A stretch of 64,000 bases of DNA from Sphaerodactylus townsendi (taxonomy: Eukaryota): positions 29,760,001 to 29,824,000 of the forward strand of contig NC_059440.1 of the NCBI RefSeq assembly GCF_021028975.2, written 5' to 3'. Under the pieces are notes generated by a model. That model did no database searches. It was not told where the DNA came from and was given only the letters and a program-made list of their open reading frames with translations. The translations under genes were made by a program, and so were the position numbers. Positions 35,891-64,000 of this stretch are shown here, one piece after another (positions within the stretch are counted from its first letter, which is position 1; the number at the start of each line of letters is the position of its first letter).

Positions 35891-35919
35891 TTTTTTTCTG
35901 CAGATATAACACTTTGATA

Positions 35920-36181
35920 CTTTCTGTAGTTAGCAGAAGATAATGAGATGGAACTAAAACATAAGATACTCTTACCCAACCTAAGAGTTATATAGCAAAT
36001 CTGTATAGATTATTACATATATCAGAAATATGTCAAACGTTAAGATTATTTTGATTTATTAATGTAATAGGAATCACTGGATTACTGAAAGAGAAGCAGA
36101 TGCAGTTGAAGATACTATAATGTAATATTAATTGATCCAATTATCCAAAAAAAAGTAGATTGCTGTTTCAATTTCTGCATA
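35920..36181 (+). mobile_element. L1 fragment (inter-ORF region and ORF2 start)
   Basis: 36002-36181 nearly identical to 44269-44452, which runs on into endonuclease motifs (DLICLQETHI). Confidence 0.7.
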
Positions 36182-36283
36182 GAACGAATGAAGAGCATAA
36201 AAGACATAAATTAGATCCCTACGGCAGTGAGAGAGCCATAGGAACTCCTATATTATTACAACTGTCTGAAATTGATCACAGAT

Positions 36284-36362
36284 CCTCTAGGTGGCAGCAG
36301 AGGACTGTGGAACTGCAGAATTTGTATTGTTGGCAACTGATCGCAGATCCACTAGGTGGCAG
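36284..36362 (+). promoter_or_regulatory. Tandem pair of CTCF-like motifs
   Basis: CCTCTAGGTGGCAG (36284-36297) and CCACTAGGTGGCAG (36349-36362) within a ~65-bp duplication. Confidence 0.5.
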
Positions 36363-36649
36363 CAGAGTACTGTGGAACTGCAGAATTTATATTTAATCTT
36401 CTATTGCTAGCCTATGACAGCATTGTAGGGCTGTATGGTGTTAGGTTATAATTTTGGCTAGTTAGTTACCTACAAGGTAATGGATATATTTAGATTAGTT
36501 AAACTTAGCTATGGTTAGGTATAGGTTAGTTATGAAGTGTTGTATTTATAGAAATTTTTAGTCTATATTTATAGTCTATTTACAGAAAATTTTAGTCTAT
36601 ACCTTAGTATTTATTGATTAGCTAGGTTTAAATTGCTGTATATGCACTA

Positions 36650-38540
36650 GCATATGTGGAGTCTGTGAGCTCTAAATTTTAACTTACTTTCTGTTTTAAT
36701 ACAAGCAGCTGGTTCGCAGCAGCAACTTTCTTTTGCTTTTTTTGGCTTCCCTCTCCTGGCAAAATTTATTTGGCTGACTGCCACTGTTTTAATTGTCTAA
36801 ACAACGAAGGAAATGACTTTGAGGAAACGTCGCCGTTCAAATCTGAGCTCTAATACCTCGAACCAAAAACCTCCCAAACAAAGTAAAATAGATGATTTTA
36901 CCACCAATTATTCTCAGCAATCTCTTCATAATGAACTTAAGCTTTCAAACAGGTTTGAGGTTTTGGAAACTTCTGTTTCGGAAGCTTCTGCCGCTCCCGC
37001 TGATCACTTCTCACACGAGGTGCCCTTGCAAATGAACGAAGTTGTGAATAACAGCACACACGAAGAGGAAAGTGTTTATCCTTCACCCCTACTTCCACTT
37101 TCAACAACTGAATGTTTACCAGCAGTGGGGAGTTCCCCTGTGTTTAATCATCATCATAAGCTTTTATCGGACAGCCTAGAAGTAAAGCATTTGACTGATT
37201 TGCATTTTCAAAGGAGGCTTTTCTTATTTCCCAAGACCTTTGAGAAATTGCTATTGCTCTGTTTCTTTTAAGTGAGAGAGTGGGTTCCCTCTTTGATTTC
37301 TTCCATCTCTGAAAAATCCAGGGCTCCCAACAACCCTGATTCACCTATTTTGTATACAATTCCTAAACACTCACCCCCCCCAATTATTTAATTTTTTTAA
37401 CTCCAGATAAACTCTCCACCATAATTTGTGCTGCAGCACCACCAAGTGTCAGTTGATATAGGGGACTCTGTTTCTAACAATGGTCGTGGTGGTCAACCTT
37501 CCACAGGATATGCACATCCCTCAGTAAACTTCTTAACCAAGCTAACCAAAGAAGACTCCACCTGAAATCCTCCTTTAAAAGACTTCCATATCGTAATAAA
37601 TACACAAGACTGGTACTAAGCTTTGAGTCCCCTGACATCCCCTCCTATCTACTCAAGCACAAAACCTTTTTTGCTAATAGCTATGACATCTGGGTAAATA
37701 GGGTTTTTTACAACACCAAAATCAACAAATTGGTGGATATTCCCAGCAACAAGGAGTTACCCAATAAAGTAATCTCTCCTAAGGAACCCTCGACTTTTTC
37801 ATCCTGTACTCTCCCAGAGACTCTCAACAGAAATTCCGAAAGGATGAATGAGATTAACTCCATCCTGACAGAATGGAACTGTCTAAAGACTCTTATTGAG
37901 GGATGGTGGGTAGTCATCAACGCCCACCTAAGAACCCAGGTGAAATCCCTTCAGCTAAGCAGGTATGGAAACTATTAAAACAACTCCCCAGATAGGACTC
38001 CTAACTCTCCACTCACAACTTCTAGATCTCTCCACCCATCAACAGCTGATACAACATCAAACCACTAACAGAGAGAATCTTAAAAGTCCGCTAAAACCAC
38101 CTAATCAAGAAATCTATGATTGATATTGATCTATGCTCTTCAGAAAGAGTACTCTATTACAGAGACTTCCGTCGCTCAGGAGGAAAATCCTGGGCAGTTG
38201 AGCTGGAGGAATTGCAACTATGTTCTATCAATCCCAGTCCTGGTACCATCTCGGACACTATAACTCATAATGGAACAGTTGAGACCCTATTATGTATTAG
38301 TTCCAAGGTCCCCCTAATCGAACCCGAATCCACAATCAATGAAGGAAAGAATACAGAGGGATTTTGTGATCTTTCTATTGGCCCTCAAGAAGATCTAGTT
38401 GATATCTCAGCCTCCCCAGTACCTGCACTTGGTCAAAGAAATTTCATTAAGTCAACAGCTCAAGTCCTCCGTGAGGAGGAATCGCAGCCCCAGCCAACTG
38501 GAGACAACAAAGAGGCAAAGTCAACTACTAGCATATGTGG
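36650..38540 (+). mobile_element. Degraded ORF1 region of an RTE-X-like LINE
   Basis: KQSKIDDF...SNRFEVL (ORF 36813) and GKSWAVELEELQ (ORF 38116) parallel KQPKIQDFF...TNRYAAL and GKSWAQELAELQ in the element at 48907-53539. Confidence 0.6.
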
Positions 38541-38559
38541 ATTTCAATTCCAGGTAGGA

Positions 38560-39860
38560 TACCTCCCTTCTGAGGACGCCCACGAGGAGGCCCTGGATGG
38601 GTCAGGGATTCCAGTGATATTGGGGCAAGGGAGGTATGACGGTAGGCCTAGGCCGAATATTAGACGCAGAGTGAGATATAGTGAAGCTCACTCTCTGTCT
38701 GACCTACAGCCTATCCCAAAGAATGCAGGTAGTGGGATAGGGATTAACTACTCTGCTCCTAGGCTGCTGTTGGCCCACGTGTGTTTTCAGGTGCCCCAGG
38801 GGCAAGTAGGCATGTGGGGCACGGGACAAGCCGTCGTTCCAATTTATATGTATACCCCACCCTGTCCCCTTGGGGCTCAGGCAGCAGAAGGCTTCCTCTC
38901 AGTCTCTTCAGCTGGGCTGGCATTCCGTCCCCTGGGAAAGGCTGGAGAAGGGTCATCCCGCCCCCTTTGTGTGGGTTGGCCGAGGGAGTTAATTACTCTG
39001 CTCCTAGGCTGCTGTTGATTAACGCGAGGTCGATCAATAACAAATATGCTACCCTCCGAGAATATCTCGGAGGTCAAGCTACTGACCTCGTGTGTGTCAC
39101 GGAGACCTGGGTGAGAGAGGGCGAAACAGTCGCCCTCAACAATCTCACTCCAGAGGGTACCATGGCAGTCCAGCAGCCTTGGACACAGGGCCGGGGGGGG
39201 GGGGGGGGCGTGGCGATGCTCATCCGAGACACCATCTCCTTCAGGACGTACCCTGTCCTGGTGATTGATGGCATGGAGTGTTTAGGCCTCCATTGGGACT
39301 ACCAAGAGAAGCTGCCGATCCTGCTGGTGTACCGGTCACCTAGTGCACCGGCGGATAGCCTGTCACGGCTTTTGGAGGTCGTCTCGGAGTGGGCGCTGGA
39401 GCACCCTCGCTTAATTGTGTTGGGTGACTTCAACGTCCATGTTGATTCGGCCTCCTCATCAGTAGCCGCTGATCTAGTGTCATCCATGGCGACGCTAGGC
39501 CTCTCTCTTGTAAATACTGGTGTCCCTACTCATCAAGGGGGCCACACTCTGGACCTAGTCTTCGCGGCAGGCGTGCATGTGGTCTTATCCTCTGTAGAAA
39601 GAGTGCTGTGGTCTGATCACTATGTCCTGAAGGCTCGGATTGATGCTCCTATGCCCCCTGTCTAGGTGACGGGCATATTTTAGCCCGCCCGTGGAGATTA
39701 ATGGAACCAGACCGGTTCCAAAATGCTCTACGGGAACTCCTGCCCACTGGCGCTACCCTAGATGAGCTGGTAGAGAGTTGGGGCACCAGGCTCTCTGAAG
39801 CCATCGACGGTATCACTCCAAAGCGCCCTCTCTGCACCCGCACCAACCCGGCTCCTTGGA
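38560..39860 (+). mobile_element. L2-clade LINE, APE endonuclease region
   Basis: LLLINARSINNK, VTETW, LVYRSP, LGDFNVH, PTHQGGHTLDL, WSDH motifs. Confidence 0.85.
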
Positions 39861-39869
39861 ACCCAAGAC

Positions 39870-40180
39870 CTGATTCAGGAACTGAGCCCGCTTCGGAAGA
39901 GGGATGAAAATATGCAAGTGTTGAGCCAGGAAGTAAATTATCTGACTGAAGTCCTAACGATGGACATCAAGGTGAAAGAAGAAAGCGAAGAGCAAACAGT
40001 ATTTCCTGCCGTGACACAGAAGGAGAAGAAGGCAGGTCTGAATCAGGAGGTTGGAGCATCAAGACCAAGCAGCCGAGCCGATGGACATGCATATAAAAAA
40101 GGAAGAGAAGGAAGAACGGAGGTCTCCAAGCAGCTCCAGGACCTTGAGAGAGTCCTCAAAGAGGAGAATGAGTCCTGAAA
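39870..40180 (+). mobile_element. Unidentified insert, possibly a gag-like N-terminal fragment
   Basis: Charged low-complexity ORF 39912-40178 interrupting the L2; family not recognised. Confidence 0.25.
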
Positions 40181-40296
40181 AGGTGTTCAAGGGAAAGTCG
40201 CCACCTGACCAGATACCGCCAAAACTCACGCTATTGGTTTTGCTCTTTGGAGTCTCGGGGATCTCGGCCTGGCTTTGATTTATTCTGGCAGCCGTA

Positions 40297-40839
40297 TTAG
40301 CGAAGTACGGCAATAAACTTATCTGGTGGTGACACCAGCGTCTTCATAATTACAGAAAGGGTCGCTTTTGAAAGTTGCCCCATCGCAGATCGTGTTTTTG
40401 AGGGTTCCATTAATTTGCAATCGCCAATTCTGAGTTTTATGCTAAACCTCATGACTTCGGCCATGGATTTTCTGTCCCTCAGAGCCTCGGCCACGCTGAA
40501 AAGGGTGAAGTGCTGCAAAACATAAAAATAGCATTTTAAAACCCCTCTGCAACACTATACAGCATCTCCCCCAATGCCCCAACCTGTCCTGATTCACCTC
40601 ACCTCCATCTTGACATGCTTATTCTGTTCAACACCATCTTCTGTTGAAACACAGGCGTCACGGGTTTGCTTCTGGTCGGTTGGTCCCGCATCACCCTCAG
40701 ACCCCGGAAACAGCTTTTTGGCAAATTTCTTGAAAAAGATGTCATTGTCGCTATCATCGGCATCCATAGCCGCATGCCTCCCTCTGGTCGGGGCAGGGGG
40801 TGGAGAAAGTGAAAAAGGGCTCCCTGCAGGGGTTTCCAT
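40297..40839 (-). other. Two-exon ORF of unknown identity (~150 aa), probably transposon-derived
   Basis: 40839-40603 (donor GAG|GTGAGG) joins 40512-40297 (acceptor ttttgcag) in frame across a 90-nt intron. Confidence 0.35.
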
Positions 40840-42344
40840 GCTCAGCTATGAAACAGGTTTGGTTTCGCAGCTGTCTCCAAGGCCCAGAATACCCATATTT
40901 ATGCCCCCAGAGGTCCAGCGCCTCATTGGTCGGCCTTAAATCGCTCGCTAGGTCGAGCCGAGTTGATTGACGTCTCACACGGCACACGGAATCAAAAATT
41001 GATACCCCGCCCCGCCCAACATGGCCGACAACTGATAAAGACCAAAGAGCCCCGCATCGCCCTAAAATGACTGCTCGGGCTTCTGCCAATCATGCCGGGT
41101 TGATTGGCACGTTGTATGACCCGGAAATCAAATTTTGGGCCAAATTCGGCTGTTCCCAATCTCCAGGGGAGCCCCAAAGAGCACCGCACCGCCCTAAAAA
41201 TGACATCGCCGGCTTCTGCCGAGCGAGCCGGCTTGATTGATGGGTCGCATGCCTGTGAAATCAAAAATTGCCGCGTCATCCCCAGCCCCAGCGGAATGTC
41301 TCCCATTAAATTATAAGCCCCTGGGTGACAGACAGCTCTGCCGCCTTCATTCGAGCACTCTAGAAGGGACTTGCCCGGGCATGCCTTTTCACACGCCTGG
41401 CCCGCTCCGCAAGGTTGATAGGACGGCTGAAAACTTTTGCAGCAGCTGCCGCTGCTTCACTGGGGAAAGGGGGAGAGGGGACAGACTATACAACAGTGCT
41501 TTGCATAGCACACACAGAGCCAACGACCTCGCTCTTGTCTGGAAAAACACTTTTTTATTTTCTTAAAAGCATGCTTCCTGGGTTTGTCAGGAACTCTATG
41601 AAGGTCGCACAGACCGGTACGGCTCCTAATTATTTCCCCGGTCTCTCTCTCATTGCCCTGAGGGAAAAGACTCTTTCAGGAAGTCACATTGCTTTTTTTA
41701 CAACACACTTCCTTTTGCAGAAATACTGCTAAAATGCAGGCTTTGCGTATTCAAACCCCGCGCCAGAGAGCTCACGAGTTGTTTTCAGTAAACCCCATTT
41801 GGCCTTTGATAAGGGAAAATGCTTTTTGGGGAAGATGCAGACATCCAACACACCGGTAAGATTCAAACACCGCGGGTCTGCTTTTCGTTTGGAAAGAAGC
41901 ATACATTCCAAGTCCGATCAGGTGGGGGGGGGGGAGGAAGACGAGCCTGACGGCTCCTTTGCATTTTCAAATGGCGCTTCTCTCCCGCTTCTCTCCCTCT
42001 CATGAACAGTTCCTCTTGGGTGGGGCTGCCAGCCTGTTGAACGCTGATTAAAAACGCTACACAGAAACGCCCTGACTTGCCAAGTACAGACACCTTCCAA
42101 AATGAATGACAAACCCAAAACACACTCTGAATGACACACAGATACACCCAGCCACAATTGCCAGCTAGGGGATAGCATGACGGATAGCTGGGGAAGACGC
42201 TAACATTCTAGGGGGTTATGCAGATTGACACCTGGGGGGAAAAGGTAGAGAAGTGAGCTAGGAGGAGGATGCGGAGGGACAGCCGGCTAATGCCGGCTGT
42301 CAGCTGTCAGCTGACATTAAATGAAGGGGGCATATAGTCTTCTT

Positions 42345-44262
42345 ACTTCACACACAAAGTCCTGACCCTCCACCAATCCCTACCTGCCACCATTGATACA
42401 GTATGTGAACTAGAGGCCCCTGGGCCGTCTTCGGGTCCTTTCTTGGACCGCTTCAGCTTACTTGACCCAACGGATGTTGACAGGATCCTGGATGCTGTAC
42501 GATCTACCACTTGTCCTTTTGACCCGTGCCCTTCCTGGTTGGTGAAAGCCGGCAGGGAGGAGCTTCGGAGCCACCTGTTGGATATAATCAACTGCTCCCT
42601 TGAGCAAGGAGCGTTCCCTGGTCGGCTTAAAGAGGCAGTGGTCCGCCCGCTCCTAAAAAGACCGCAGTTAGATCCAAGGGGATCCGGCCAATTACCGCCC
42701 AGTTTCTAATTTACCATTCTTGGGCAAGGTAATTGAGCGAGCGGTGGCGGCTCAGCTCCAGCGATTCCTGGATGACGCAAACGTATTGGATCCCTTCCAG
42801 TCTGGCTTACAGTCATGGGACCAAGATGGTGCTGGTTGCTGTTGTGGACGACCTCCGACTGCACTTGGATAGAGGCGGTTCGGCGCTGTTGGTGTTGTTA
42901 GATCTCACCGCAGCGTTCGATATGGTAGATCATGACCTTTTGGTCCACCGCCTCGCTGATATCGGGGTTTGGAATTCAGCCTTGAGTTGGCTGATCTCGT
43001 TCCTCCGAGATCGGGGACCTCAGGTGGCATCGGGGGTGAGATCTCCAAGCGTCACCCCATTATATGTGGGGTACCGCAAGGAGCGATACTCTCCCCGATG
43101 CTTTTTAATATCTACATGCACCCTCTGGCAAGTCTGGTTCGGAGTTTTGGGCTGCGGTGTCACCAATACGCGGATGACACCCAGCTCTTGTTCACAATGG
43201 AGGGCAGCCCGACCTCGGCCCCTGATGCTCTCCAGTGTTGTCTTGATGCTGTGGCTGGTTGGTTGAGTGCAAGTTGGCTGAAGTTGTATCCCACTAAGAC
43301 CGAGGTCCTGTGGTTGGGCTGCGGGGAGTGTCTGGTGGCCTTTGGCCTGCCTACGCTTCTTGGCGAGACATTAAAGTTAACTTTGTCTGCCAAGAGCCTG
43401 GGGGTGACTCTGGATTCATCTTTATCATTGGTGGTCCAGGTCACCCAGACAGCCCAGGCAGCTTTTTACCATCTGCGGCAGGCACGGCAACTGGCCCCGT
43501 ATCTCCCGTTCCAATCTGGCCACTGTGATCCACATGCCATGGTCTATTCTAGACTAGGATTCATTGTAATCCCTCGCTTCTACGCTGGCTTACCTTTGGC
43601 CATGATCCGGAAATTGAAACTCGTGACATGAATCGGCAGCCAGATTCCTCTCAGAGAGCAACAGCCAGGGACCAGAATTACCCCCGGTCCTATACCAGCA
43701 GCAACTGCACTCGGCTGCCAATCGATGCACCGGGTCATGTTTAAAAGTTTTGGTATTGACTCTTCAAAGCCATTCAAGCGGTCTTGCCCCTGCTTATCAT
43801 CTGGAGGGACCGGCTCTCTCCCTACTCTATAAGCGCCCTTCTGAGGCCCCCCCTCCTGTTCATCGGCAGAACCTTACCTGGTGACTTCTCTGGCCCCAAG
43901 GCAATCTGGCTGGCCTCTACAAGGGCCAGGGCCTTTACGGCTCTGGCCCCTACCTGGTGGAACAGGCTTCCAGGCAGGAGATTCAGGGCTCCTGCCCAGG
44001 GACTTACAAAGTTTCATGCAGGGCCTGTAAAACGGACCTTGTTCCCGCCAGTTTGGCTAATTTGGCCAGCCGGGATGATGTCAACTTGCCAAAAAGCATC
44101 CGGCCTCCTGTGGGTTCATAAAGGGGGACAGAAGAGCTGAAGCCATCTATAGTTTAGTATTTTATGTATTTTAGGTAAATTATATATACGATGTTTTAAA
44201 CTTTTATTGTTGATGGAAACCGCCCTAAGCCATCGGGGAGGGCGGTATATAAATATAATTTT
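42345..44262 (+). mobile_element. L2-clade LINE, RT and 3' end (degraded); probable continuation of 38560-39860
   Basis: TTCPFDPCPSW, LLDLTAAFDMVDH, GVPQGAILSP, YADD motifs with frameshifts; tail gggcggtatataaat. Confidence 0.9.
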
Positions 44263-44268
44263 AAAAAT

Positions 44269-45130
44269 TGTATAGATCATTACATATATCAGAAATATGT
44301 CAAACATTAAGATTATTTTAGATTTATTAATGTAATAGGAATCACTGGATTACTGAAAGAGAAGCAGATGCAGTTGAAGATACTATAATGTAATTTTAAT
44401 TGATCCAATTCTCCAAAAAAACCCCATAGATTGCTGTTTCAATTTCTGCATAAACAAAGAGCAGATTTGATCTGCCTACAGGAAACCCACATCAAAAAAA
44501 GGTAATGAAAGATTGCTCCAAAATGATAGTCGAGGAGAACTATTCGATGCATCTTATAAATCCAAAAAAGAGGCATAGCAATTTACGTGAAACAACAACT
44601 AAAACCTAAACTAATTTTTAAAGACCCCCCAAGTCAGATTCATTGGAATAGAAGCCACTATAATCGGGCTTAAGACTTTACTAATTGGAATATATATCCC
44701 TAACGAGAACAAAAAGGAATATTATAAAGAACTCTCTGATATAATACTTAGATATCAATATGATAACACCATCCGTTTAGGCAACTTCAACGGAGTTATA
44801 AATCTAGTCCTAGATAAATCTGAAATAAGGAAGAACAAAAGGAATAAAGGTTTAAAAGGTAATACAGCTAAATTACCAAATTCTTTTTTTGATCATACAA
44901 CATCTGGGTTTAAAGGATATTTGGAGAGAAAAATATAGGAAAGCAAGGGAATATACATTCTTCTCTAACAATCGGAGCTTTTCCAGGATAGATATGATCC
45001 TTTTGACTAAATATTTCATTACGAAAACACAAGATACTGCTATTCTTCCAAGATACTTATTCTACAGATTATGATACATGATTAATGGCAGCTGGAAAAA
45101 AATTAAAAGAATAAAGCAGAAACAATTTTA
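44269..45130 (+). mobile_element. L1 ORF2 endonuclease fragment (degraded)
   Basis: LQETH, IGIYIPN, GNFNG, FSRIDMI; colinear with 56282-56960. Confidence 0.85.
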
Positions 45131-48038
45131 TAACGCTAGAACGCCCTTGCATCAGCACCCCAGCGCCCTGTAACAGTTCAACATCACTACCACGGCCTTG
45201 TTGGCCCCTTTGTTGTGAATCCAAGAAATAGTTCTTGAAAATAATTGCCTATCTTTGGCTTCCCACCAGCTTTCCCATCCTGGTACTGAGTAACGGTCAA
45301 TTGAAAGTCTTGGCCCAGCTGCACAAAGTTTGCTAACAGTTGGAACTTCAATAAACTTTCAGCCACAACACCTGATAAGAATGAAGATTTACATCACCTG
45401 CTTTAGTTAATTAGCACCAATTCGTGATTGGTCCACTAGGATCACCTGATGTGCAATTCCCCTATATCTGCTTTTCCATATTGTAAGAGAGGCACCCTTT
45501 TTCCTTGCTTCCCCCCTCCCTTTTCACTCCCAATATACACAATGCTACCTCATGCTGGCTAGAGGCTGTCTATTGAATTATGAGAACTGTTTGATTCTTT
45601 TCTTTTTGTCTGCTAAGCAATGGAGAAGTTTTACATTTTGATTTTAGTAGGTTCAGTTATTTTGTCTCTCTTTGCTCTTATTCAGCTAATTGTATGCATC
45701 ATATGCCACCTGACTATAGTTTGTTGAATAATGCCGAGTTCAATAAACTTTAAGAACTTGTTTTAAAGAAACTGCCTTTTTTTCTGAGTCGTGTGAAAGT
45801 TCAAAATCCAAACCCACGTTTAAGGAGAGTAGGTAACTCATCCTCTACAGATGCACTCGCAAGCTTTCTTGATGGGTAATGCCTAAAACAGTCTTCAGTG
45901 GCTCCACTTTTCAAACTGCTGATCCATCTGCACATAGTTGTTGATCTGCTGATCCATCTGTATATAGTTGTTGTATAGAGTTGTTATGAAGCAGTTAATA
46001 AAGTTATGTTATGTTGCACAATCACACCTGTTCCTGCCGTTCTTTTTGGGATATCACCAACACCACAAAGCACACCTAGGTGGCACAACCGCACATGATG
46101 GGGAGGTGGAACATTACACATAGCTTGTTGCTGTGCCATGATTCTCATCACCAGGGAAATAATTATGATTTTATCTGGCCGAAATTGGCAACATGACACA
46201 GGTTAGTTGCAGCGAGGGGTAGAAAATCAGACCAAAGGGGACACACGGCACATGCGAAGGAGTGTTTGTGGTTCGGAGCTTCCAATGTGGGGAACCATAA
46301 CTTTGGTAGCTGTGAGCCAGTCATTTGGAATCCTGGTGGAGGTCATCAGCATAGTCTGCTGAATCATTACTCAACGTTTTCTCCTGCAACTTTTAAAACT
46401 TTGCCCACCTGCAGGCCAATTCCGGAGTGAACACTGTGTAAATTGATAACTAGTCAATAATAACAGGGAGTCCATTAAAAATACCAAGCACAGCGCCCCA
46501 GGATACAGAATTCATGTCCTTGAGAGCTACATTTCGAAATCAGTGGAACTGGGGAAAAAATTTCCACATAAGTTTAATGTATATATCATTTAACATGATC
46601 CAGTAACTTCTTTAAGGGTTTGTTGTTTGTACTGTGCCCCTTGCAGATAGTCCACATTTACATAAATTCCACTTAGGTTGGCATGGTGCTGTTCTAAGAA
46701 CCGTACAACCGTAGGACTTTACTGCAATACTCCTTTAAAATCTGGGACTACAGAAAGCTAGGGAGATTGTCAGGCAAAGATTACATGACTTGGATAAACA
46801 ATCTGATTTAAGGCTCAATCTGGAATATCTAGCTCCTGAATCCCTAATAATAAGGGTACCACCAGCCCCTCAGCTATTTTTCAAACACAATAAGATTGAA
46901 AGGAGGATGCTTTGATTGGTTCCAAGTCACACCCTGCCATTCAAGGAAACCTGTGGTTGCTCCCCGGAAGAAGTGGATTCATTTGAGCACAAGTTGCTTA
47001 AATGCCCTCTGTACTAGGAGCTTACAAAAGAAATCCTGGTGCCTATTTTGACTGAATGGAATTAAATGGAAACTGAACTTCTCTCTGTGTGTGTCTCTCT
47101 GTCTCTTTGTCTCTCTCCATCCCTCCCTCCATCCGTCTACCATCAAACAAAGAGTCATTCAGCTGTTGTGTTCCCTGTGCAGCACCACCCCACCAGACAT
47201 GTGCCATTATATAAATATTGTAATTAATATTAAATATATAATTACAGCCTTTCACTACTTTTGAAACCGTGCCCACCCGCAGGCCAATTCCCGAGTGAAC
47301 ACTGTGTAAATTATAACACAGCAGTGTTCTGGTGAGATCTTGAGTCTTAGATGCAGCTAACAAGTCAACTACCTAGTATTCCACTCTCCGTGGAAGCAAG
47401 GGGACCTCGAATGTATGGTGAGGAGAGGGTGTTCAACATCCCCACCGTGCTACTTTGGCATTGCGTTTCCCAAGCACAGGTTCCACTTTTTGCCAAAAAA
47501 GATACTGTCAAAAGTGTAGCACTGAGTAGAGTGCACTTATGGTATTCCAAACGGTAGTATGAAGTTGTCACATTACTCCTACTGCACCCATAGCTTGGGA
47601 TATGTTCTCACTTTGGCGTCGTATTGAAAATATGCTTTCTGAGAGGTTTGAATAATCAATGCAACGCTTCTTCGCAGGATCGCGCGAAAATAGTAGCCAT
47701 AACTGGAAAATGTAATTCCCTTGTAAAATATTTTCAACATACGACTCTCCAGCACACCTGTCCTGGTAAGCCTTAACAACACAGATTAGTACTTGTTTGT
47801 GGTTGGTTGATTTTTTTGTTATGTTGGTTGCGGTTGTATTCAAAAGTGGGAAACTGGCCAATGACATTCAGTGTTTCACAATTAGGGTCACATATTACCT
47901 ATAGGTCACTTTTTTTGATAGAGAAAGTAAACAGCTCTCTGGTTGGTCCAGGTCTCCTGGGGGGGGGGGCATTGCTCAGCAAAACTTTTCTGGCTAAAAA
48001 ACCAACTGAACTTCTGTTTTTCTCCAGAACATCCAGCA

Positions 48039-48229
48039 ATGCCAAACAAAAGGAACGGGGTGTTCTGGCAGAAAGAGGAGGTGGCCCTGCTGCTCTCCTC
48101 CATAAGGGACATGGGGGTTGAGGAACTCTTAATGCGGAGTACCCACCTCCCAAATGAAAATGTGTTCAGGGACATTGCAAGAATATTAACTGACCGAGGC
48201 TACGAACGGTCAATGCTTCAAGCCCACAC
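48039..48229 (+). mobile_element. Myb/SANT-like (trihelix) ORF fragment, probably from a PIF/Harbinger-type transposon
   Basis: WQKEEVALLL...VFRDIARIL...GYERSMLQ; acceptor at 48027; near-identical to 63496-63665. Confidence 0.7.
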
Positions 48230-52240: not shown

Positions 52241-52244
52241 TGGA

Positions 52245-52713: not shown

Positions 52714-53539
52714 AAAGAGGTTTTAGCAGAACTAACAGATTTTAACTCCCCCCGTTTAGAACCGTATTCAAGATGGCGATGGGACTGGACTGGTGATAAT
52801 ACAGTTCCCTCAGATACTTCCTCTGGAGTGATAAGAGCGAGTTTTTCCCAGGCTCTGACCACATCATGGGTAGTAAAAAACGGACTAGAGAGCTGGAAGA
52901 AAACTCCCCTCCCACTGCTAAACAACCAAAAATCCAGGACTTCTTCCAAATTCCTTTAACAAACCGCTACGCAGCTCTAACTAATAATGAGCCAGTGCCG
53001 GGAGATGAGAGCTCCCTTAGAAGTTTATCAGAAGGAACTGAAACAGAAATGCTTTCCAGCAAAACAGCAAATGTCCCGAATGTACAAATAAATACAGCTG
53101 AGAGTGCAGACAGTAACCTCACTGTATCTGAAGACCGACAAGAATTAATCAGTCTACTGTCTCTCTTAGTGGGGACAGTCGAATATATATACAATGAGCT
53201 TAAGCTGCTAAATGGCAAAAGGAACGCAGTAATGGACTCCAAAAAGCAGGAATGCACTGAGGCTCAATCAACAGCACAAAGAGAACTACAGCTCAGTCTC
53301 ACAAAGACCACTCCTGTTAAAGACACAAGCTCCAATTTTCAGCAAAAAAGCAGAGAAATTAGGAACACTTGCAACCTAACACTCTTACCCAACAAAATCT
53401 GTTTAATCATTGGTAAACACAGAGGCATAGTCCCCGACTGGAGCGAACCCTCTCTGGCCAAGCACCACCTCAGTATACTATTAAAAGAAAGTTTACACCG
53501 TGTCAACCTGCGCTCAGTAGAAATGATGGACTATGAAAA
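52714..53539 (+). mobile_element. RTE-X-like LINE 5' UTR and ORF1 N-terminus
   Basis: CAAGATGGCG in the leader; ORF from 52866; last 184 bp (53356-53539) duplicate 48907-49090. Confidence 0.75.
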
Positions 53540-53862
53540 TAAAAAGTCATGGTTGGGGTTCAAGCAAGGGCTAGGATTAAGGCAAAACCCCGAAACCTGA
53601 AACTGAGCATAGTCCTATTCTCGGACTGCGCCCTAGAAATCAACATAAGGCAACCCCTGCCCTATAACTTGGGCCATTTAAAACAACCATAACAACATCC
53701 TGCTTTAAAAGGCAGAAATCCCGTTCCTGTTTATCTAGATGCAAAGTCTGAGATTACTGGACCGCCCCGGTTGCCGAGGAGGGGAAGGCGGCTTGGCCGG
53801 TCCGCCCCGGAGGAGGCACGGCTGTGGGAGGAAGCGGCTCGGCCGGGCTGCCACTCAACCGC

Positions 53863-53909
53863 CTCCCTCCCTCCCTCCCTCCCTCCCTCCCTCCCTCCCT
53901 CCCTCCCTC
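53863..53909. repeat. (CCCT)n microsatellite
   Basis: Direct tetranucleotide run. Confidence 0.95.
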
Positions 53910-55083
53910 TGGCGGAGGTTCGAGGCTGTGGAGCGTCTCCCTTCCTGCCAGCTTAGGTGAGCTCCGGGCTGGGGGCTGGCTGGGGGGTCCGGGGTGGCGG
54001 CCCTGCTCCATTCTGCCCTATGAGTATAATTGTAGGGTTCTTTTATTTTTGTACTTCCTAGCTAAGATCGTCTGCTTTCTACCCTGTGGAAACGCAAGTG
54101 TCAAAGAGAAGGCTACCTGGCCGAGGGGCAGGACAAGAGCGTCCCAGACTGGAAGATCTTCTACTTCCTCTGCACCTTGAAAAGGAACCTGATCAGAAAT
54201 CATATTGCGGGAACTTCCGGCAGGACTCCGAGACGGCTAGCCGCACCTGAGACGGCTGCGGCTCCAAAACCTTGTTTATTCAAAATTCTTGTGGTTGCAA
54301 ACGAAACCCAAGAACCTCTGAAGCAGAGCAAGCAGAGGAAGGAAAGGCGAGAAATCGCTGCGGTACCCCAGCGCCCCCCCCCAAAAAACTCAGCAGGAGC
54401 CTGGGAAAGGCTTTTTGCTGGGAGCTACGGGAAGACGCCGGGGGAAAGTGCCATTTACAAGGCAAGGGAACGATAGCAAAAAGACAGCTGAAGGGAGTCA
54501 ATGCTCTTTTTCACGGAGGGCGGAAACATTGCCGGAAGAGAAACGGAGAAGCGGAGTAAGAACTAAATATAAACGTTACCTATAGCAGGAGTGAAATACT
54601 AAAGAAACGCAAAATATAGACATAGCCGCAACTGGAAGGAGAAGTCAGGAGGGGAAGAAAGGTGCCGCGAAGTGCGAAGCCCAGAGCCCAAAGGCTTAAC
54701 AGTTGCGGTGAATAGAAGCAATAAAGCTGAAAGGGTGAGTGAACAAAACTTTCTTTTTAAATAAATAACCTGACGGACGGCGTCTGCGGGAACCAGGCTT
54801 GCCAGATAGAGCCAATAAAAGGGTTAAAACGAAAGGACGATACCCGGAAACAGTGTAGAAAAGGAAGAGGCTACGTAGCGTCAATCAAGTCCGAACATTG
54901 TTTTGTTTCCGGTTGATAAACAAAAGAGCAGAATGAAACCATAGAGTCCAAACGATCTAGAGTGGCCAACTTTAAGAGGACGAAAGAGTAAGAGACTGAA
55001 AAGAAGAGAGAAAAAGACTGTGGGACTGTGGGACTGTGAGACAGAAGGGCAGGAGGGAATAAAAGGAGCTAACTAATACAAGA

Positions 55084-55929
55084 ATGGCGACTAGAGCCAA
55101 GAACGGTAATAATGGAAATAATGGAAAGACCCCAGAAAGAAATAATATTGAAATGAATACGAGAATGGACCAGCTTACTGACCTGATTGTTTCCTTTCAA
55201 GAAGATGTGAATGGTAAACTGAGCAAACTGGATAAATTAGACCAAAGATTTGAATCCTTTGAAAAAGAAATATTAGAAATAAAAAAGGATCTGAGCCAAG
55301 TCAAGAAGATAGAAACTTTGATGGTGGAGCTGAAAAAAGAAGTAGGAAGTATAAAAAACGAAATGACAGTAACTGACAGTAAAGTAGAAATTATGAAGAA
55401 CCAACAAGAACAACTGCTAGACCAAATGGCTCTGATGGAACTAAAATTGAAAGAAAATCAGCTGAGAATAAGAGGATGTAAGGAAGAAGGAAAAGAAGAT
55501 GTAAGAAGAAAGCTGATTAATGCACTAGGAGAATTTTTGGGAATGGAGGAGGAAGACCTGGATCAGGATATAGAAAAGATTTTTAGAGCAAACTCCAGAT
55601 TTGCAAGGAATAACCACACACCAAGAGACATAATAATAATCTTTGAGAGGAAAAGAACAAGAGATGAAGTCCTAATGAAACACTCTAAAGAAAGACTTAA
55701 AATCCAGGGACAAGAGGTGATAGTATTGAAAGAAGTCCCAAATCATATTCTAAGAAAAAGAAAGGACTATACCCCCCTAAAGAACTGGTTAAAAGAAAAT
55801 AATATCGTTTTTAGATGGGGGATGCTGGAGGGTGTAAGCTTTATATGGAATTCAGAAAGAATTATAATAGACTCAATACAACAAGCACAAGATTTCCTGA
55901 AGGAAAAAACGGGGAAAAAGGAATTGTAA
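55084..55929 (+). CDS. L1 ORF1p (coiled coil, RRM, CTD), 281 aa, open
   Basis: Heptad-rich N-terminal half; LRIRG and PRDIII motifs. Confidence 0.9.
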   Translation: MATRAKNGNNGNNGKTPERNNIEMNTRMDQLTDLIVSFQEDVNGKLSKLDKLDQRFESFEKEILEIKKDLSQVKKIETLMVELKKEVGSIKNEMTVTDSKVEIMKNQQEQLLDQMALMELKLKENQLRIRGCKEEGKEDVRRKLINALGEFLGMEEEDLDQDIEKIFRANSRFARNNHTPRDIIIIFERKRTRDEVLMKHSKERLKIQGQEVIVLKEVPNHILRKRKDYTPLKNWLKENNIVFRWGMLEGVSFIWNSERIIIDSIQQAQDFLKEKTGKKEL

Positions 55930-56281
55930 GTGAATGAACTATATTTTATGTTTATGTAAATGATTAATTGGACCCTATAATCGTTCTTGTGACTATTAGT
56001 ACTTTATTAATACGAATAGTAAAAGGGATCCATACTGTCAATGATTAAAATTCAGGAGGTGATTTCTATTTTTATTTTTATTTAATTTTTCTCCTCCCCT
56101 TTTTTTGAGGGAGGGTTCCCCTTCTTTTTCATGAAATTTCAGTGTTATGCTTATCATTTTATTTATCAAAAACAATATATGTATATATATATATATATGA
56201 ATTAATTAACTTGATATGAATGAATAGTCTCAAGAAGAAATTCTGAATTGTAGGCCACTCTATAAATGAACTGATAAAGCT

Positions 56282-59200
56282 ATGACAGTAGATTTGCTAA
56301 CTATAAATGTAAATGGACTAAATAGTCCAAATAAAAGAAAGAAGATTTTTAGGTATTTACACCAAATCAAACACGAAATAATTTGTGCTCAAGAAACACA
56401 TATAAGGAGAAAAGACAGGAAAATTATAGAATGTAAAAAACTAGGAGTGCTGTTTCAAGCGACAAGTGAGAAAAAGAAAAAGGGAGTGGCAATTTACGTA
56501 AAAGAAAAGTTTGATCCAAGACTGATCATTGAAGACCAGACAGGAAGATATATAGGGGTAGAGGTAAAAATAAACAACTTAAAAACACTATTAATAGGAA
56601 TATACGCACCCAACAAAAACAAATCCCAGTTCTTCAAAAATATGTTAAAAGATATAACGCAATTTATGTACGACAATATAATCATAATGGGAGATTTTAA
56701 CGGAATAGTGAATAATGTAATGGATAGGAAAGGAAAAAAAGATACAACTAGTGGTGTACTTCCATCATCCTTTTTTGATCTCATAAATATCTTAAATTTG
56801 AAAGATGTGTGATGACAGAAAGAAAGAAACTTGAAAGAATTTACTTTCTTTTCAAACAGTCTTACTCGAATCGATATGATCTGGACGACAGAGTTATTGA
56901 ACTTTAAAACAAAAAGAATAAAAATTCTACCTCGATTGGTGTCAGATCATAACCCAGTTAGCTGGCAGATTATAAATAAAAAGAATAAAAGTAGAGGATA
57001 TACCATCAAAAATTGGCTGTTACAAAATAAGAAAGTATCTGAAATAAACGAGTTAAAAATGAAAGAATTTTTCCAGGTAAATAATGGATCAGTAGCAGAT
57101 AAAAAGATAATCTGGGAGACGAGCAAAGCATATGCCAGAGGCATATTTATAGAACAGGAAGCAAGGATTAAGAGAGAAAAAGAACAAGAACAAAAGAAAA
57201 CACTAGAAGAATTAGATAAGTTAGAAAAAGATTTGATTAAGAGACCAGAGAACAAAAAAATTAGACAAAAGATACAAAATTTGAAACAAAAAATAGATCA
57301 AAAATACCAAATTGAGATGGTGAAAAATCTAAAATTCTTGAAACAGAGGGAATTTGAATGGGGTAACAAACTAGGAAAATGGTTGTCACAAAAATTAAGA
57401 AAAGAAAAAGAATCAAGGACGATAACACGAATTAGAGATAAAAATGAGATCATTACAGATGAAAATAAAATAGAAAGAATGTTTCTAGAATACTATGAGA
57501 AATTATATAAAGAAGGAGGAAAATCCATATACCAAATAGAACAATATTTAAAAGAAATGACAACCCCAAAGATAAATGTAGAAGATCTGGAGGAACTAAA
57601 TAAGAACATAACAAAAGAGGAGATCATAAGTGTCATTAACAATCTACAAGACGATAAGGCCCCTGGTCCGGATGGCCTGACACCAAAATACTATAAAAAA
57701 ATGAAGGAAATAATACTACCAAATATGTTAGAATTGTTTAACGAAGTGTTTGAAGGGAAAGGAATACCAAAGACATGGGAGGAAGCTTTCATCACATTGA
57801 TACCAAAAACACAACAAAAAGTATTGGAAGTATCAAACTATAGACCTATATCTCTTCTCAATGTAGATTATAAGATATTCGCAAAAATTTTAGCAGAGAA
57901 ATTGAAAAAGAAATTTTTGAAAGAATACATTGGAGAAGACCAGGTAGGGTTTATGTCAGGGAGAAGTAGTAGAGAGAATATAAGATTAGTAATAGACATG
58001 ATAGAGTATTTGGGCCACAAACCAGGGAAAAAAGCAGCTCTAGTTTTTCTAGATGCTGAAAAAGCCTTCGACAATGTGAGTTGGCAATTTATGAGCAGTG
58101 TCATAAGGAAGATAGGAATAGAAGGTGGATTCAAAAAAGCAATTGAGTCAATATACAAAAATCAATGGGCATCGATATTAATAAATGGAAATCCAACAAA
58201 TAAATTCAGTATAAACAAAGGTACCAGACAAGGTTGCCCCTTATCGCCAATATTATTTAACATACAACTGGAGATTTTGGGACGTAAAATAAATGAAGAT
58301 AAAACCTGGAAAGGAATTAAAGTTAAAGATTGTGAATATAAATACAGGGCTTTTGCGGACGATTTAGTCTTATTTGTTGAAGAACCAGTAGAAAACATAC
58401 CAATAATCCAAAAAAAGTTAACTGATTTTGGGAAGTTTCAGGATTTAAAGTAAACAATGAGAAAACAAAAATACTGACAAAAACCTGACAAATGTAGAAA
58501 ATATACAACTTCAGGAAAACACGGGATATAAGGTGGAAAAGAAAGTGAAATATTTAGGTATAATATTAGAAAACCAAAATAACGCACTATATGAAAATAA
58601 TTATAAAAAGAAGTGGGCAGAAGTTGAACAGGATATAGAAAGATGGAACAAACTAAATCTATCCTTTCTAGGGAGAATAGCGGTGATAAAAAGTAATATC
58701 ATGCCCAAATTGATGTATATCTTTCAGAATGTACCAACAATGTTGACTGCAAAAACAATTGAAAAATGGAAAAGAGCATTAGTAAAATTTATTTGGAATG
58801 GAAAAAGATCAAGAATAAATTATCTAACACTAATAGATGAAAAAGGAAGAGGAGGGTTAAAACTATCGGATTTACAGGCATACTATGACTCTAATATGCT
58901 AGTCTGGATTACAGACTGGATCTTCTTAAAAAATCGTAAGATATTGACATTAGAAGGACATGATTTAGTAAAAGGATGGCACGGATATCTGTGGCCAGTA
59001 GGAGAAGGAAAAGATAATAAAACCTTCCAAAACCATTATGTAAGGAAAATATTATGGAACATATGGGTTAAACATAAGAGAAGACTATACCATAAAATGC
59101 CCCTATGGGTGTCAAGGGCGGAAACATTACAGATAAAAGAATTTAATAAGGAATGGAATTGGCCATCATATGAAAATACAACGAATATAACAAATAGTGG

Positions 59201-59995
59201 AATTGAATTTAAAAATAGAGAAGAAATTCTTAATAAGGATGTCATCTGTCACTGGTATACGTACCACCAACTTTATGAAACCTTAAAAAAAGATAAAGCA
59301 AAATTGGATATCCAAAATAAGAAGAATGAATTTGACGATTTGATTAGTAGAGGAAGTAGAAAATTAATTAGTAGAATATATAATTTGCTGTTAAGATTTA
59401 GAACAGAACAAAATGAAGTCAAGGAAGTGATGTTAAAATGGTCATTTGACCTAAAAAAAATTATAACATTAGATGAGTGGGGGAAAATTTGGAAACGACA
59501 AAACAAATTTACATTATCAACAAGTCTGAACGAAAATTTCATAAAGGTTTATAACAGGTGGTACTATACGCCAGTACAACTGTCGAAAATGGATAATAAG
59601 AAAAATAACAAATGTTGGAAATGCAGGAGAAAGGAAGGCTCTTTTATCCACATGTGGTGGAGTTGTAGATGTATAAAAAATATTGGAAGAAAATAGCAAT
59701 ACAAATGCGAAGGATATTGAAGATGAAAATATATTTAAAACCAGAAATATTTTTGTTGGGACTGACTAAGGATAAAAAAATACTAAGGAATGATGTTCTC
59801 TTCCTTTATATGATAACTGTGGCTAGAATTGAAATTGCAAAGTGTTGGAAAAAGAAAGAAACACCATCTGTGAAAAAATGGGAAGAAAGGATGCAAGAAA
59901 TAATGGACGGACCTATTAACTTGGAGACTGAAAGACAACGTAGAAAGATTTGAAGAAATCTGGAAGCCGTTTAAAAACTACTTTAAGTTATAATA
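56282..59995 (+). pseudogene. L1 ORF2p (EN, RT, CCHC) with stops and frameshifts
   Basis: NVNGLNSP, QETH, GDFN, SDHNP, APGPDG, NYRPISLLNVD, DAEKAFD, GTRQGCPLSP, FADD, CWKC..H...C; TGATGA at 56810-56815; frameshifts near 58430-58500, 59670 and 59910. Confidence 0.92.
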
Positions 59996-61174
59996 TTTAA
60001 ATTTGATTTAGAAGTTAGAGTGATGAATGCTACAGGACAGGAGAAATTAAAACTCCTGGGAGAAAGATTTTTCCCCGCAAAGTGATTCCATGTTTTATTC
60101 TTTAAGTGAGGATGTATAGAAATAAGATAAAATTTCAAAGTATAACTGAAGGTTTTTAGTTAACTGATTGTATAATTAGAGAAAATTATATAAATACAAA
60201 AACATGGAAGAAGACATTAGGTTTAGTTTTTATTGAAATTATGTAATATTTTTTTTGTTTTTTGTTTTGAGCAGAAATTATTATCCTGAATGAACTATGT
60301 TGTAATGTTTATTGAACTGTGCAAAATCTGTGTTGTTTTTTTTAAAAAAAACCCCTGTAACTTGAAATTCTTAATAAACTTTAATTTAATTTAAAAAAAA
60401 AAGAAATCATATTGCGGAAGGTGGGCTCTTGGGAGGAGGAGGAAGGCTCCAGGCATCCCAGATTTTAAGTTTGGGCTTCTCTGGTGTGCCTGCGGTAGTG
60501 AGGACGCTGTTCTTGGGGGTTTCTGAAATGGTTGCTCGGTTTTGAAAAAGGGTTTATGAATCATCTGCAGGAAATCATCTGCTCATCAACTTAAAAAATG
60601 CAAGCACCTGTTATGCACATATACATAAAACCGGGATGCTCTTTGCCTGTGGAAAATTAGCCTTTCAAAAAAGGAGGAGAGGATATTCTTTCCTGAGCTG
60701 TCCATTTTCTTCCGGCAAAGGATATGGGGAGGGGGGAATCATTCAGTCTAGGGTGGTTAATATTTATTTGAATTTGATTAAATGTTTTGCTTCTTTTAGA
60801 GGCTGCAGTGCGTGCATTTCAGAGCGGTGTACACCACTCCTGCACGTGTAAATAGCTATGCTTAGCAAAAATATACTCAGTTAATAAGGAGCACTTTTAA
60901 AATTAATCCACATTTTGAATTGACTCATCAGCTAACTGCTGCAGTTTCAATTAAAATAAATGGATTTCCTGCACCTGAATTCTGAAATCTAAAAAACAAG
61001 AACAGAATACAGCCCGGAAACCACACAGCACCCCAATAACAGAATTTCGTAGGACTGGGAATTAAAAGGAATAGGACAGAGCTGAGAGAGAAATAATTTT
61101 GGAGTGAATAACTGAAACTGAAAGGCAAACCTGTCTTGGTTTTGTTCCTGGTTGGCTTCCCCCTGCCCCAAGAC

Positions 61175-61242
61175 ATCATGGGAATTGTAGTTTAGTGGGG
61201 GAAGAGGCTCAGGATGGTGAAGAACTACAGTTCCCAAGATTC
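61175..61242. mobile_element. hAT MITE remnant
   Basis: tgggaattgtagtt / aactacagttccca inverted pair. Confidence 0.45.
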
Positions 61243-62579
61243 CACAGGGAATGACTATTAATCACTACAGAGGCACGCTGTAAAAACCGCAAAATAAACA
61301 GAAATGAGTTTGAAAAACACATATTGTTCATTTGCGGATTATGTTTTCCGAGTTGACTGATCTCTTTTAGGTTCCGATTACGCTGTTCAGTGGTGATTTA
61401 TTCTATGCTTCTGGCATTTAAAAATTATATGGGGTTAAAGAACCACGTTCACCTGCTCATTTTGCTTCCATTTTAAGGGTACCCAGACTTTGCCCCAAAT
61501 TCTCCAGCATCTGGAGCTGGTCTGTGCAGGGATGAACTTCTCTGGCACTCACCCAAGCCTCTTGCTTTTCCCAAACTTTTTCTGGTTTTCCCACAGATGG
61601 CTTTAAGTCCTGGGACATTGAGTCCAACTGGATGCCAAATACATTGAAAAGAGTTCTAAACCATCAGATACAGGGGCACAAACACCCCTGCCTCACCAGG
61701 AAGGTGCCCCCAGCCATCAGGGCTCCCCAGGGGCCACCACCCAATGACCTGGCTTTAGCACTTTTGCAACACTTAAAGGGCCAGCATGCAATTTCAACTA
61801 GCTCTCAACCAGAGAGAAATTTAATGGAGCTCACAACTGCACATGGTTCCACAGTAAATATTGCATCACAGGAAAAAGGGGATCAACGGCTCTGCCCAAT
61901 CCCCCCAATGCAGTATAGCAGCAATGCCCCCCCCCAAACACCAACAAGGCCTCCTGCTCACCAAGCAGCAACTCCTATCTGCACATCTTCCAGGCAGGAT
62001 GACCAATCAGAGTCTTGAGCATCATCATCTGCTCTGGCCATCCCCCTGGAGGACTTTGCCCAAGAACCAGCCAAACTCCCACCTCAGGATTTTCATTTTA
62101 ATAAGTGCCATTTTCTGTTAATGTTAAACTAAATGTGACATGATGAGAAGAAAGAATGGCAGAAGCTTTCCACCTCATTGCTCCAAATACTTATGGGGTG
62201 CAGGGCCCCTTCAAGGCCGCCAGGTCACCAAATTCACCAGGTCACCAAAACCCGGCTACAAGGGAACGTGGATCTCAACCTCGACAACCAATGCCAACAA
62301 CAATACCTCAGGTGGCACGAGGTCTGGTTAACCTTGAACACATTTAAAATGAGACTAGTGGAACATATTATCTAACAGACCAATATTATGAAGCGCACCC
62401 AGAATTACACTTAAGCATGACAGAAGCTCAACACTTACAACAACCACATAGGCCACACTAGAGACCACCCATTCGGTCAGTACCATGCCATCAGAGTGGG
62501 ATCAGGCCCTCAGTGAATTGCCTGCAAAAAGACAACTACCCACCGATCAGGAGGCCCAACGGTTGCAAGAATACGCATT

Positions 62580-63190
62580 CCTTAATTGAAAGATCGGCGA
62601 AAGGAGGATGGGCTCTCCCAGACATAAGACTATATCACGATGCCTGTGCATTGCTTTGGCTGAACGAATGGAACTTGTTAGAAAATATAGACCTACTTAA
62701 CCTAGAAGGCTTTGACAACTTTTGGGGCTGGCATAGATATTTGTGGCCAACCAAGAAAAATCATTTTTCACATTTTAGAGACCATGTGATAAGAAGGGCC
62801 CTGATAAGCACATGGAATAAATATAGGCCCAAGTTGTATACAAAAATACCTTCTTGGGTATCAAGATGGGAAGCGACACAAAATAAGCAATGTCTAGCGG
62901 AAAAGGTATGCCCCAAATATGAAGACCTTTTAACATGGAGTAATGGTAAACCCGGCCTAAAACAAAGAGATGATATTAAAGTGGGAGAATCAGAATGCTA
63001 CTGGTTCTCTTACTTTCAAATTAGAGAGGAGTTTGAGAAAGATAACAGGCTACTGGGACGAAATCAAGAGACGAAATTTTACGTGCCCCTTGTGTAGCAA
63101 AGGTGAAATTAGAAGACAAGGAATTAATAATATTAAAAGAAATACCAACAAGCATACAAAAGAGAAGAAAGCCCTACAAGATCTTGGTTG
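62580..63190 (+). mobile_element. L1 ORF2 post-RT fragment (different subfamily)
   Basis: GGWALPDIRLYH...LEGFD...GWH, colinear with ~58830-59400. Confidence 0.8.
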
Positions 63191-63495
63191 ACATTCTGCG
63201 ACAGAACATGTAATTCCCTTGTAAAATATTTTGAATAATTAATGCAACGGGCCTTTCCCCACTCTCGTTGTTCCCCTCTATGCCGCACGCTGCTCTCAGC
63301 GCGCAGCATCCCAGGTGCGCGCCCGGCCGTCCCCACGACCCCGCGCTCTGCGCGGGGCCATCAAAAGGCGCCGTTAAGAAGAGCGCCTGGGATGCCGTGC
63401 GCTGAGGGGGCGCAACAGCGGCAGCCTTGAGGCGGCTGCGCTGTCGCCGCCCCTGTCGGGGGGAGCGACGAGGAACCCCGCGCTACTCTCCTCAA

Positions 63496-63817
63496 GTGTT
63501 CTGGCAGAAAGAGGAGGTGGCCCTGCTGCTCTCCTCCATAAGGGACATGGGGGTTGAGGAACTCTTAATGTGGAGTACCCACCTCCCAAATGAAAATGTG
63601 TTCAGGGACATTGCAAGAATATTAACTGACCGAGGCTACGAACAGTCAATGCTTCAAGCCCGCACTAAGTGGAAGGCATTGAAGAAACAATTCTTCGATG
63701 CTGTGGAGTCTTCTGACGGTCAGCCAGGACCACGTGGCCGACCAAAACCTTTCAGGGAGATGCGCCAGCTGTGGGTCACAGCTGGCAAGCCACGTTACAG
63801 TGAGCGGTGGCCAGAAA
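63496..63817 (+). mobile_element. Myb/SANT-like (trihelix) domain exon, probably a PIF/Harbinger accessory ORF
   Basis: WQKEEVALLL...FRDIARIL...QARTKWKALKKQF; ends at donor GTAAGT. Confidence 0.7.
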
Positions 63818-64000
63818 GTAAGTATAGTACTTTTCCAAAAGGGACAGACAAACATGTTCAGCAGTTTTTAATAGGAAGCATTAGGCTCGCATGGCAACAT
63901 TGTTGATGTTTGTGAGGGTACAAATCCCAGAGCAGGTTTACTGTCAGAGAAGCCCCAAAAGGGTGTTAAGTGTGTGTTAACGAGGGCCAGATAGAATTAT

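Follow-up and report, generated by a model that had tools for sequence, protein, structure and literature searches.

Why should almost all the fragments of transposable elements (TEs) in one stretch of DNA face the same way? The question is raised by a window of 64,000 nucleotides from Sphaerodactylus townsendi (assembly GCF_021028975.2, contig NC_059440.1, hereafter C16, positions 29,760,001 to 29,824,000 of the forward strand), for which an earlier note had proposed a 28-kb flamenco-like, uni-strand cluster of PIWI-interacting RNAs (piRNAs) at 35.9-64 kb. Our analysis included the next 200 kb of C16, with coordinates past 64,000 continuing the numbering of the window (C16 position minus 29,760,000); the genome assembly amounts to 1.81 Gb and C16 to 33.7 Mb. 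It revealed that the co-oriented block is a real, well-bounded and non-random feature, larger and more biased than first described, and that it probably is a uni-strand piRNA cluster of 79 kb with a putative minus-strand precursor.

The block extends from 35.9 to about 115.2 kb (right end at about C16:29,875,200), and its part inside the window (35900..64000, plus strand) is followed by 51 kb more past the window end, so the right border at 64 kb that had been given did not hold. TE protein matches occupy the 35.9-115 kb interval and cease at both borders, which are sharp; GC content is about 0.58 before 35.9 kb, falls there to 0.44 and rises again, to about 0.51, at 115 kb. The description of nearly continuous nested TE pieces starting just after TRIM62 was confirmed, and all the named pieces are present.

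A Pfam domain scan of the open reading frames (ORFs) of at least 70 amino acids on each strand detected TE domains in nine of 59 plus-strand ORFs versus none of 67 minus-strand ORFs at 35.5-64 kb, where two plus-strand ORFs also match MAP65_ASE1 (PRC1), and in 15 of 74 versus none of 57 at 64-114 kb. Two blind control regions totalling 170 kb contain 11 TE-domain ORFs out of 281, from six elements, two on the plus strand and four on the minus strand; by ORF count, the 24 TE-domain ORFs found in about 78 kb of block are about 4.6-fold denser than the 11 of the controls. With tblastn and queries derived from the block, matches cover 33,460 bp on the plus strand versus 99 bp on the minus strand within the block, and seven plus and four minus loci (6,785 bp) were found in 724.7 kb of flanks and controls. 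The contrast in density given by tblastn (about 45-fold) is inflated by self-matches, since the queries derive from the block, and it was set aside in favour of the Pfam figure. The strand tally against adjacent and control DNA that had been proposed as a check thus opposes a one-sided block to controls with elements on both strands, and the earlier statement that all orientable retroelements lie on the plus strand persists with fuller annotation and over the added length.

In a hand tally of orientable units, internal duplicates being counted once, 28 of the 30 units of the whole block are on the plus strand (p 8.7e-7). These are 11 L1, two L2 and three RTE-like elements, two 3′ ends of long interspersed elements (LINEs) that we take to be Rex1-like, four long terminal repeat (LTR) units (two copia, one gypsy and one gypsy solo LTR, oriented by full-length donors), one Harbinger and five host genes. 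For the Rex1-like ends, PF09004 was found on the matching strand in three of the five donor ORFs tested, the second end being oriented by its tail only. Within the window, 12 of 13 orientable units are on the plus strand (two-sided p 0.0034), and a tally by class gives the same proportion (12/13, p 0.0034). The probability of about 0.016 calculated initially assumed seven independent insertions; this independence is partly broken by duplications, but the collapsed tally is stronger. The bias takes in copia, gypsy and Harbinger, for whose integration no strand preference is known, as well as all five host genes, the latter on their own being merely suggestive (5/5, p 0.06). Overall, the block holds dense fragments of at least seven TE classes (L1, L2, RTE-like and Rex1-like LINEs, copia, gypsy and Harbinger, besides a Maverick end) lying overwhelmingly on one strand, as in uni-strand clusters.

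Could such a structure be created by the assembly? Four DNA runs were compared, out of five from three organisms and two studies; run X1 possibly comes from the sample used for the assembly. With 31 or more letters on either side, contigs bridge the junction at 46,560 in all four runs, that near 39,860 in organism B, that near 36,180 in organism C and that near 114.3 kb in two runs, X1 and X4. The right-edge piece occurs in both B and C, with an identity of about 96% or higher. Wholesale mis-assembly is unlikely because contigs of two other organisms bridge some junctions, and the concern expressed in the earlier note is answered for the junctions that are bridged in other DNA runs. Two facts nevertheless speak for an assembly problem: the assembly has local base errors (three runs covering one site share differences from it), and the whole block is not spanned by any single contig in the four runs. 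Some frameshifts may be artefacts of these local errors. Decay on a non-recombining sex chromosome predicts no strand bias and, as for mis-assembly, has against it the sharp borders and the intact domains of both flanking genes; we regard either explanation as highly improbable.

The way in which the block was built can be partly read from its junctions. A full-length L1 (54,211-60,401) interrupts an FBXO exon, and this L1 and a full-length copia are true, independent insertions on the plus strand. The majority of the remaining junctions are abrupt: they lack a tail and show 0-6 bp of microhomology, as expected from later deletion or templated repair. Within this one assembly, internal duplications in direct orientation number 37 and amount to 23.0 of 80.4 kb (29%), against 0.6 kb for three inverted pairs; with these duplications and the microhomology junctions, the block is a hotspot of duplication and deletion, as amniote pachytene piRNA loci are. 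Three interruptions show direct overlaps: 35997-36181/44265-44452 (185 bp), 48060-48233/63496-63669 (174 bp) and 48907-49090/53356-53539 (184 bp). These lengths of 174-185 bp are near the nucleosome repeat, which may be due to chance. Most donor-matched pieces are 84-98% identical to their donors and therefore sample young families. The common short interspersed element (SINE) has no copy in the 79.3-kb block versus 31 copies in 204.7 kb of flanks (12 expected; Poisson 6e-6), and 44 copies were counted in a further 100 kb of C16. Likewise, two palindromic families of miniature inverted-repeat transposable elements (MITEs) are absent from the block versus 14 and 28 copies in the flanks, and a third MITE family has one truncated copy in the block, at 63.2-63.5 kb.

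The predominance of direct pairs (37 versus three inverted) would fit an untranscribed TE nest with a self-reinforcing orientation, in which LINEs enter the A-rich strand of older LINEs, inverted repeats are lost and direct duplications multiply the first orientation. The plus strand is indeed A-rich and L1 pieces account for 11 of the 28 plus units. However, such a process cannot orient non-homologous pieces, and 10 of the 11 non-LINE units are on the plus strand (Maverick being the other one), as is the recent copia insertion, which has its own target-site duplication. This origin is therefore rather improbable.

The simplest account of a bias that extends over LINEs, LTR elements, a DNA transposon and host genes would be an orientation selection relative to a minus-strand transcript, and a piRNA source, more than an ordinary intron or long non-coding RNA (lncRNA), is indicated by the surplus of coding pieces from autonomous elements of young age. 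Under the piRNA cluster that we propose, gonadal transcription would run from right to left, and the long precursor, read from the minus strand, would yield on cleavage piRNAs antisense to many of the young transposons of the genome. Inserts would arrive either way round, and those antisense to the precursor would be retained because they supply silencing guides and do not bring sense-strand splice or poly(A) signals that cut the precursor. Selection against such signals would act on host pieces too, which we propose as the reason why unspliced host pieces face the plus direction. Deletion and duplication would pare the array to short coding fragments from many families.

The precursor would start, with about equal probability, by read-through past the poly(A) site of PADI or from a promoter near 115.1 kb. 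PADI, the right flanking gene, is on the minus strand (PAD domain in four ORFs among 12 tested right of 114 kb); the stop of its last exon is near 122,664 and a candidate poly(A) signal near 121,880. The left flanking gene (30007..33695, plus), whose RING, B-box, PRY and SPRY domains were identified with Pfam and which we take to be TRIM62, as it was labelled earlier, has its 3′ end toward the block, which thus sits between two convergent 3′ ends, downstream of PADI. At 115,093, the upstream edge for the predicted minus-strand precursor, four MYB-type motifs are grouped in 120 bp at the right edge of the block, the only such window in 264 kb, with one more in 500 kb of controls; one of the four is altered in organism C. 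A-MYB drives pachytene precursors in mouse, and a rooster A-MYB chromatin immunoprecipitation data set is cited in the same source (PMC8514520). Inspection by eye of the minus strand of the right-edge piece (about 114,650-114,840) revealed a polypyrimidine tract with AG and, about 190 nt on, a GTGAGT donor, which together make a possible early exon of a minus-strand transcript. Splice-donor motifs (minus, 35 versus 22) may simply reflect TE sense strands and were not used as evidence.

Several observations weigh against a piRNA cluster. Minus-strand poly(A) hexamers are not depleted in the block (49 observed versus 32.5 ± 3.7 in shuffles), the MYB-motif cluster was spotted by eye before counting and is thus a post hoc lead, and 6.6 kb of ordinary DNA with a SINE and MITEs separate the PADI poly(A) signal from the block edge. 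The SINE is also low in three macrochromosome controls (2, 4 and 9 copies per 100 kb), which weakens the argument drawn from its absence, and CR1-type and DIRS-type elements, present in the controls, have no Pfam match in the block. Two units are on the minus strand, a Maverick/Polinton end (40,343-42,344) and an inverted duplicate (86.5 kb), and about 9 kb in ten pieces (hand sum), outside the 28/30 count, have neither orientation nor assignment. Furthermore, the 30 units may still overstate independence, given the internal duplications and the scattering of the PRC1-locus pieces; those at 38.8, 48.2 and 76.1 kb follow an order that differs from the donor. Finally, although 28/30 rejects a 2:1 bias (p 6.5e-4), it is compatible with the 4:1 antisense bias that a long intron or lncRNA might give (p 0.044).

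This last figure would also fit a transcribed locus that makes no silencing RNAs, namely a long minus-strand lncRNA or read-through unit in a rearrangement hotspot, from which sense inserts are purged for disturbing the transcript. It would cover TE and host pieces alike, and a reverse bias has already been seen for primate intronic pseudogenes (57-59%, PMC6461890). It leaves unexplained both the enrichment of coding pieces from young autonomous TEs and the lack of the SINE and MITEs in which neighbouring introns are rich, and it appears unlikely. A protein-coding intron is also unlikely, since the PADI stop precedes the block and the left flanking gene has the plus orientation. At the other extreme, the locus could rank among the major piRNA clusters of squamates and be, instead of a passive trap, a curated library of fragments, which would capture unspliced TE and host pieces (PRC1, NUMA1, FBXO6/44, CLCNK), reshuffle them in a fixed orientation with 170-185-bp overlaps, shed non-autonomous repeats and supply antisense guides against young transposons and spindle genes; we consider this elaborate version quite unlikely.

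The block is a candidate piRNA cluster and would thus belong to a known type of locus. The piC-DoG clusters of mouse, human and hamster, which are pre-pachytene, have antisense TE fragments tightly packed past a gene, over 50 kb (PMC11615739). As in the clusters described there, the block consists of dense LINE and LTR fragments antisense to the predicted precursor, over tens of kb downstream of a gene 3′ end, here that of PADI and on the predicted precursor strand; unlike them, its dense part starts 6.6 kb past the poly(A) signal, it includes a DNA transposon and unspliced host pieces, and its read-through and piRNAs are predicted. In the flam-like clusters of Drosophila, which act in somatic follicle cells, the strand bias is driven by Gypsy alone, and a figure legend of the same source indicates that fly clusters tolerate sense inserts at the precursor 3′ end (PMC10643416). 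The block resembles flamenco and these clusters in being one-stranded, with fragments antisense to the predicted precursor and a sense exception near the 3′ end (here the Maverick unit, at the extreme 3′ end that the precursor would have), but it is dominated by LINEs, every class is biased and gypsy accounts for only two of the 28 plus units. It therefore seems closer to mammalian piC-DoGs than to flamenco. The initial reading is partly supported, its examined sequence-level predictions having all come true: as a piRNA cluster it gains from the bias, the TE diversity, the controls, the junctions and PADI as a possible driver 6.6 kb upstream, whereas its likeness to flamenco is loose and, in the strict sense of a Gypsy-only bias, is lost.

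Chicken piRNA loci are TE-enriched hotspots of tandem duplication and deletion in which inversions are also enriched (PMC9925758); like the pachytene loci reported there, the block is TE-rich with many duplications and deletions, but its internal pairs are overwhelmingly direct. In primate piRNA clusters, unprocessed pseudogenes are over-represented and show little sign of gene-regulatory function (PMC6461890); the block likewise holds unspliced gene pieces. Uni-strand clusters, defined by small RNAs, are the majority in axolotl, a non-mammalian tetrapod, with a median length of 10 kb (PMC7618676) compared to 79 kb for the block, which is delimited by its sequence. A literature search limited to titles and the beginnings of abstracts, in a collection with few subscription papers, found no description of a piRNA cluster in a squamate (lizard or snake). 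This sharply bounded 79-kb candidate, shared with two related organisms, offers unique junctions for read mapping and two candidate promoters, and would let the existence in squamates of read-through clusters (described for mammals) or A-MYB-driven clusters be tested directly. It is also a clean case for fragment gain and loss in clusters, because true insertions, deletions, duplications and host-gene captures are all readable from its sequence.

Most pieces of the block were assigned by genome searches and alignments to donor copies. An L1 endonuclease piece at the left border (35958..36181, plus) has a 94% duplicate at 44,265-44,452, which belongs to a longer piece extending to 45,168 (44265..45168, plus). 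The ORF1 region of one or more apurinic endonuclease-reverse transcriptase (APE-RT) LINE pieces follows (36801..38528, plus), of which 37,071-38,528 is 93% identical to a C3 copy whose ORF2 carries endonuclease and reverse transcriptase (RT) domains; the label RTE-X for this LINE and for that at 48.9-53.5 kb comes from the earlier note only. A single L2-type element (38526..44259, plus), interrupted by inserts, accounts for both an endonuclease (38.8-39.7 kb) and an RT (42.3-44.3 kb), and has a 3′ tail. Its span includes a PRC1-locus piece (38765..38988, plus; 80% to the C17 donor, sense as in the exon-bearing piece), a piece of a low-copy coiled-coil gene (39867..40282, plus; donor ORF of 335 amino acids on the same strand), presumably of host origin, and a Maverick/Polinton end (40343..42344, minus), made of a terminal inverted repeat and 0.55 kb of the gene next to it, whose donor encodes rve and chromo domains and DNA_pol_B_2. 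This end is a real exception, and the main one, as had been suspected from a minus-strand ORF at 40.3-40.8 kb, the 0.55-kb gene piece being on the minus strand. Maverick/Polinton-like copies of about 9-18 kb with both terminal inverted repeats were found at C4:74.958-74.977 Mb and in at least five other places.

A minus-strand exception also suspected at 45-47.9 kb was rejected, since alignments place on the plus strand both a 5′-truncated gypsy solo LTR (45169..45853), of which a second, complete copy lies beyond the window, and a Harbinger piece (45850..48233) comprising the 3′ end of the transposase gene, a spacer and the 5′ part of the Myb gene, with an insert at 46,560-47,495. The remainder of the Myb gene (63496..64000, plus) extends about 1 kb past the window end; the two Myb ORFs noticed at first are thus plus-oriented as stated, but come from a single Harbinger element, of which each represents one half, with 174 bp duplicated. 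Between them lie an unspliced PRC1 fragment of two exons with introns (48231..48907, plus; 96% to C17:5,922,215-5,922,908) and a circularly permuted APE-RT LINE, whose 3′ part precedes its 5′ part with a 184-bp overlap (48907..53539, plus; 92-98% to a C2 copy), in which a copia 5′ LTR, gag and start of pol are nested (50811..52255, plus; 4-5-bp duplication of flanks). An unspliced FBXO6/FBXO44-like fragment (53533..61628, plus; 84-98% to C16:31.430-31.434 Mb, with internal deletions) is interrupted by the full-length L1 (54211..60401, plus), which has ORF1, a broken ORF2, poly(A) and a 16-bp target-site duplication. An L1 ORF2 C-terminal piece, then an L1 ORF1 piece (62462..63208, plus), both recurring further right, are followed by the truncated high-copy MITE with terminal inverted repeats (63245..63497), which is not orientable.

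Beyond the window, many L1 pieces, all on the plus strand, are interspersed among the following. A gypsy element with SCAN, CCHC, protease, integrase C-terminus and RT (65,030-69,900, plus) precedes the full-length copia (71,928-76,107, plus; identical LTRs and a 5-bp duplication) and an additional PRC1-locus piece (76.1 kb, plus). NUMA1 pieces (80,627-82,612 and 85,662-85,801, plus), the inverted 170-bp duplicate (86,496-86,668, minus), the complete gypsy solo LTR (97,399-98,154, plus), a ClC-K exon with introns (103,405-104,050, plus), the second L2 (104,131-106,920, plus) and the block-specific right-edge piece (114,300-115,200), which has a second copy at 90.5-91.4 kb, complete the array. 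Another piece, of 2.3 kb (95,017-97,364), has its only close match (93%) at C70:649-2948, in an 11.5-kb unplaced contig.

The five host-gene pieces, all on the plus strand, are unspliced wherever introns could be checked. Their identities rest on E values of 1.4e-16 for FBXO6/44, 1.3e-4 for ClC-K and 3e-4 for NUMA1, whose donor has a hook domain. An origin as spliced retrocopies was rejected, since introns are retained and GT-AG ends are missing from those parts of the FBXO donor that were skipped. At C16:29.15-29.19 Mb, GC-rich tandem arrays (GC up to 0.92) with kilobase-long open frames in all six frames adjoin two NUMA1-derived segments in opposite orientations and the likely CLCNK locus; these arrays may include assembly errors.

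A second block, at C1:189.49-189.54 Mb, appeared co-oriented by tblastn (five plus, no minus), but Pfam detected minus-strand rve and chromo ORFs and it was rejected as not comparable. Its part at 189.505-189.531 Mb carries at least four Harbinger Myb ORFs, a DDE transposase and L1 pieces on the plus strand, with minus-strand rve/chromo ORFs nearby, and by its domain content is a Harbinger nest rather than a one-way block. Finally, a 108-bp GC-rich minisatellite lies at the left border of the 79-kb block (35364-35886), and related arrays are located at C3:153.3 Mb and C16:29.19 Mb.

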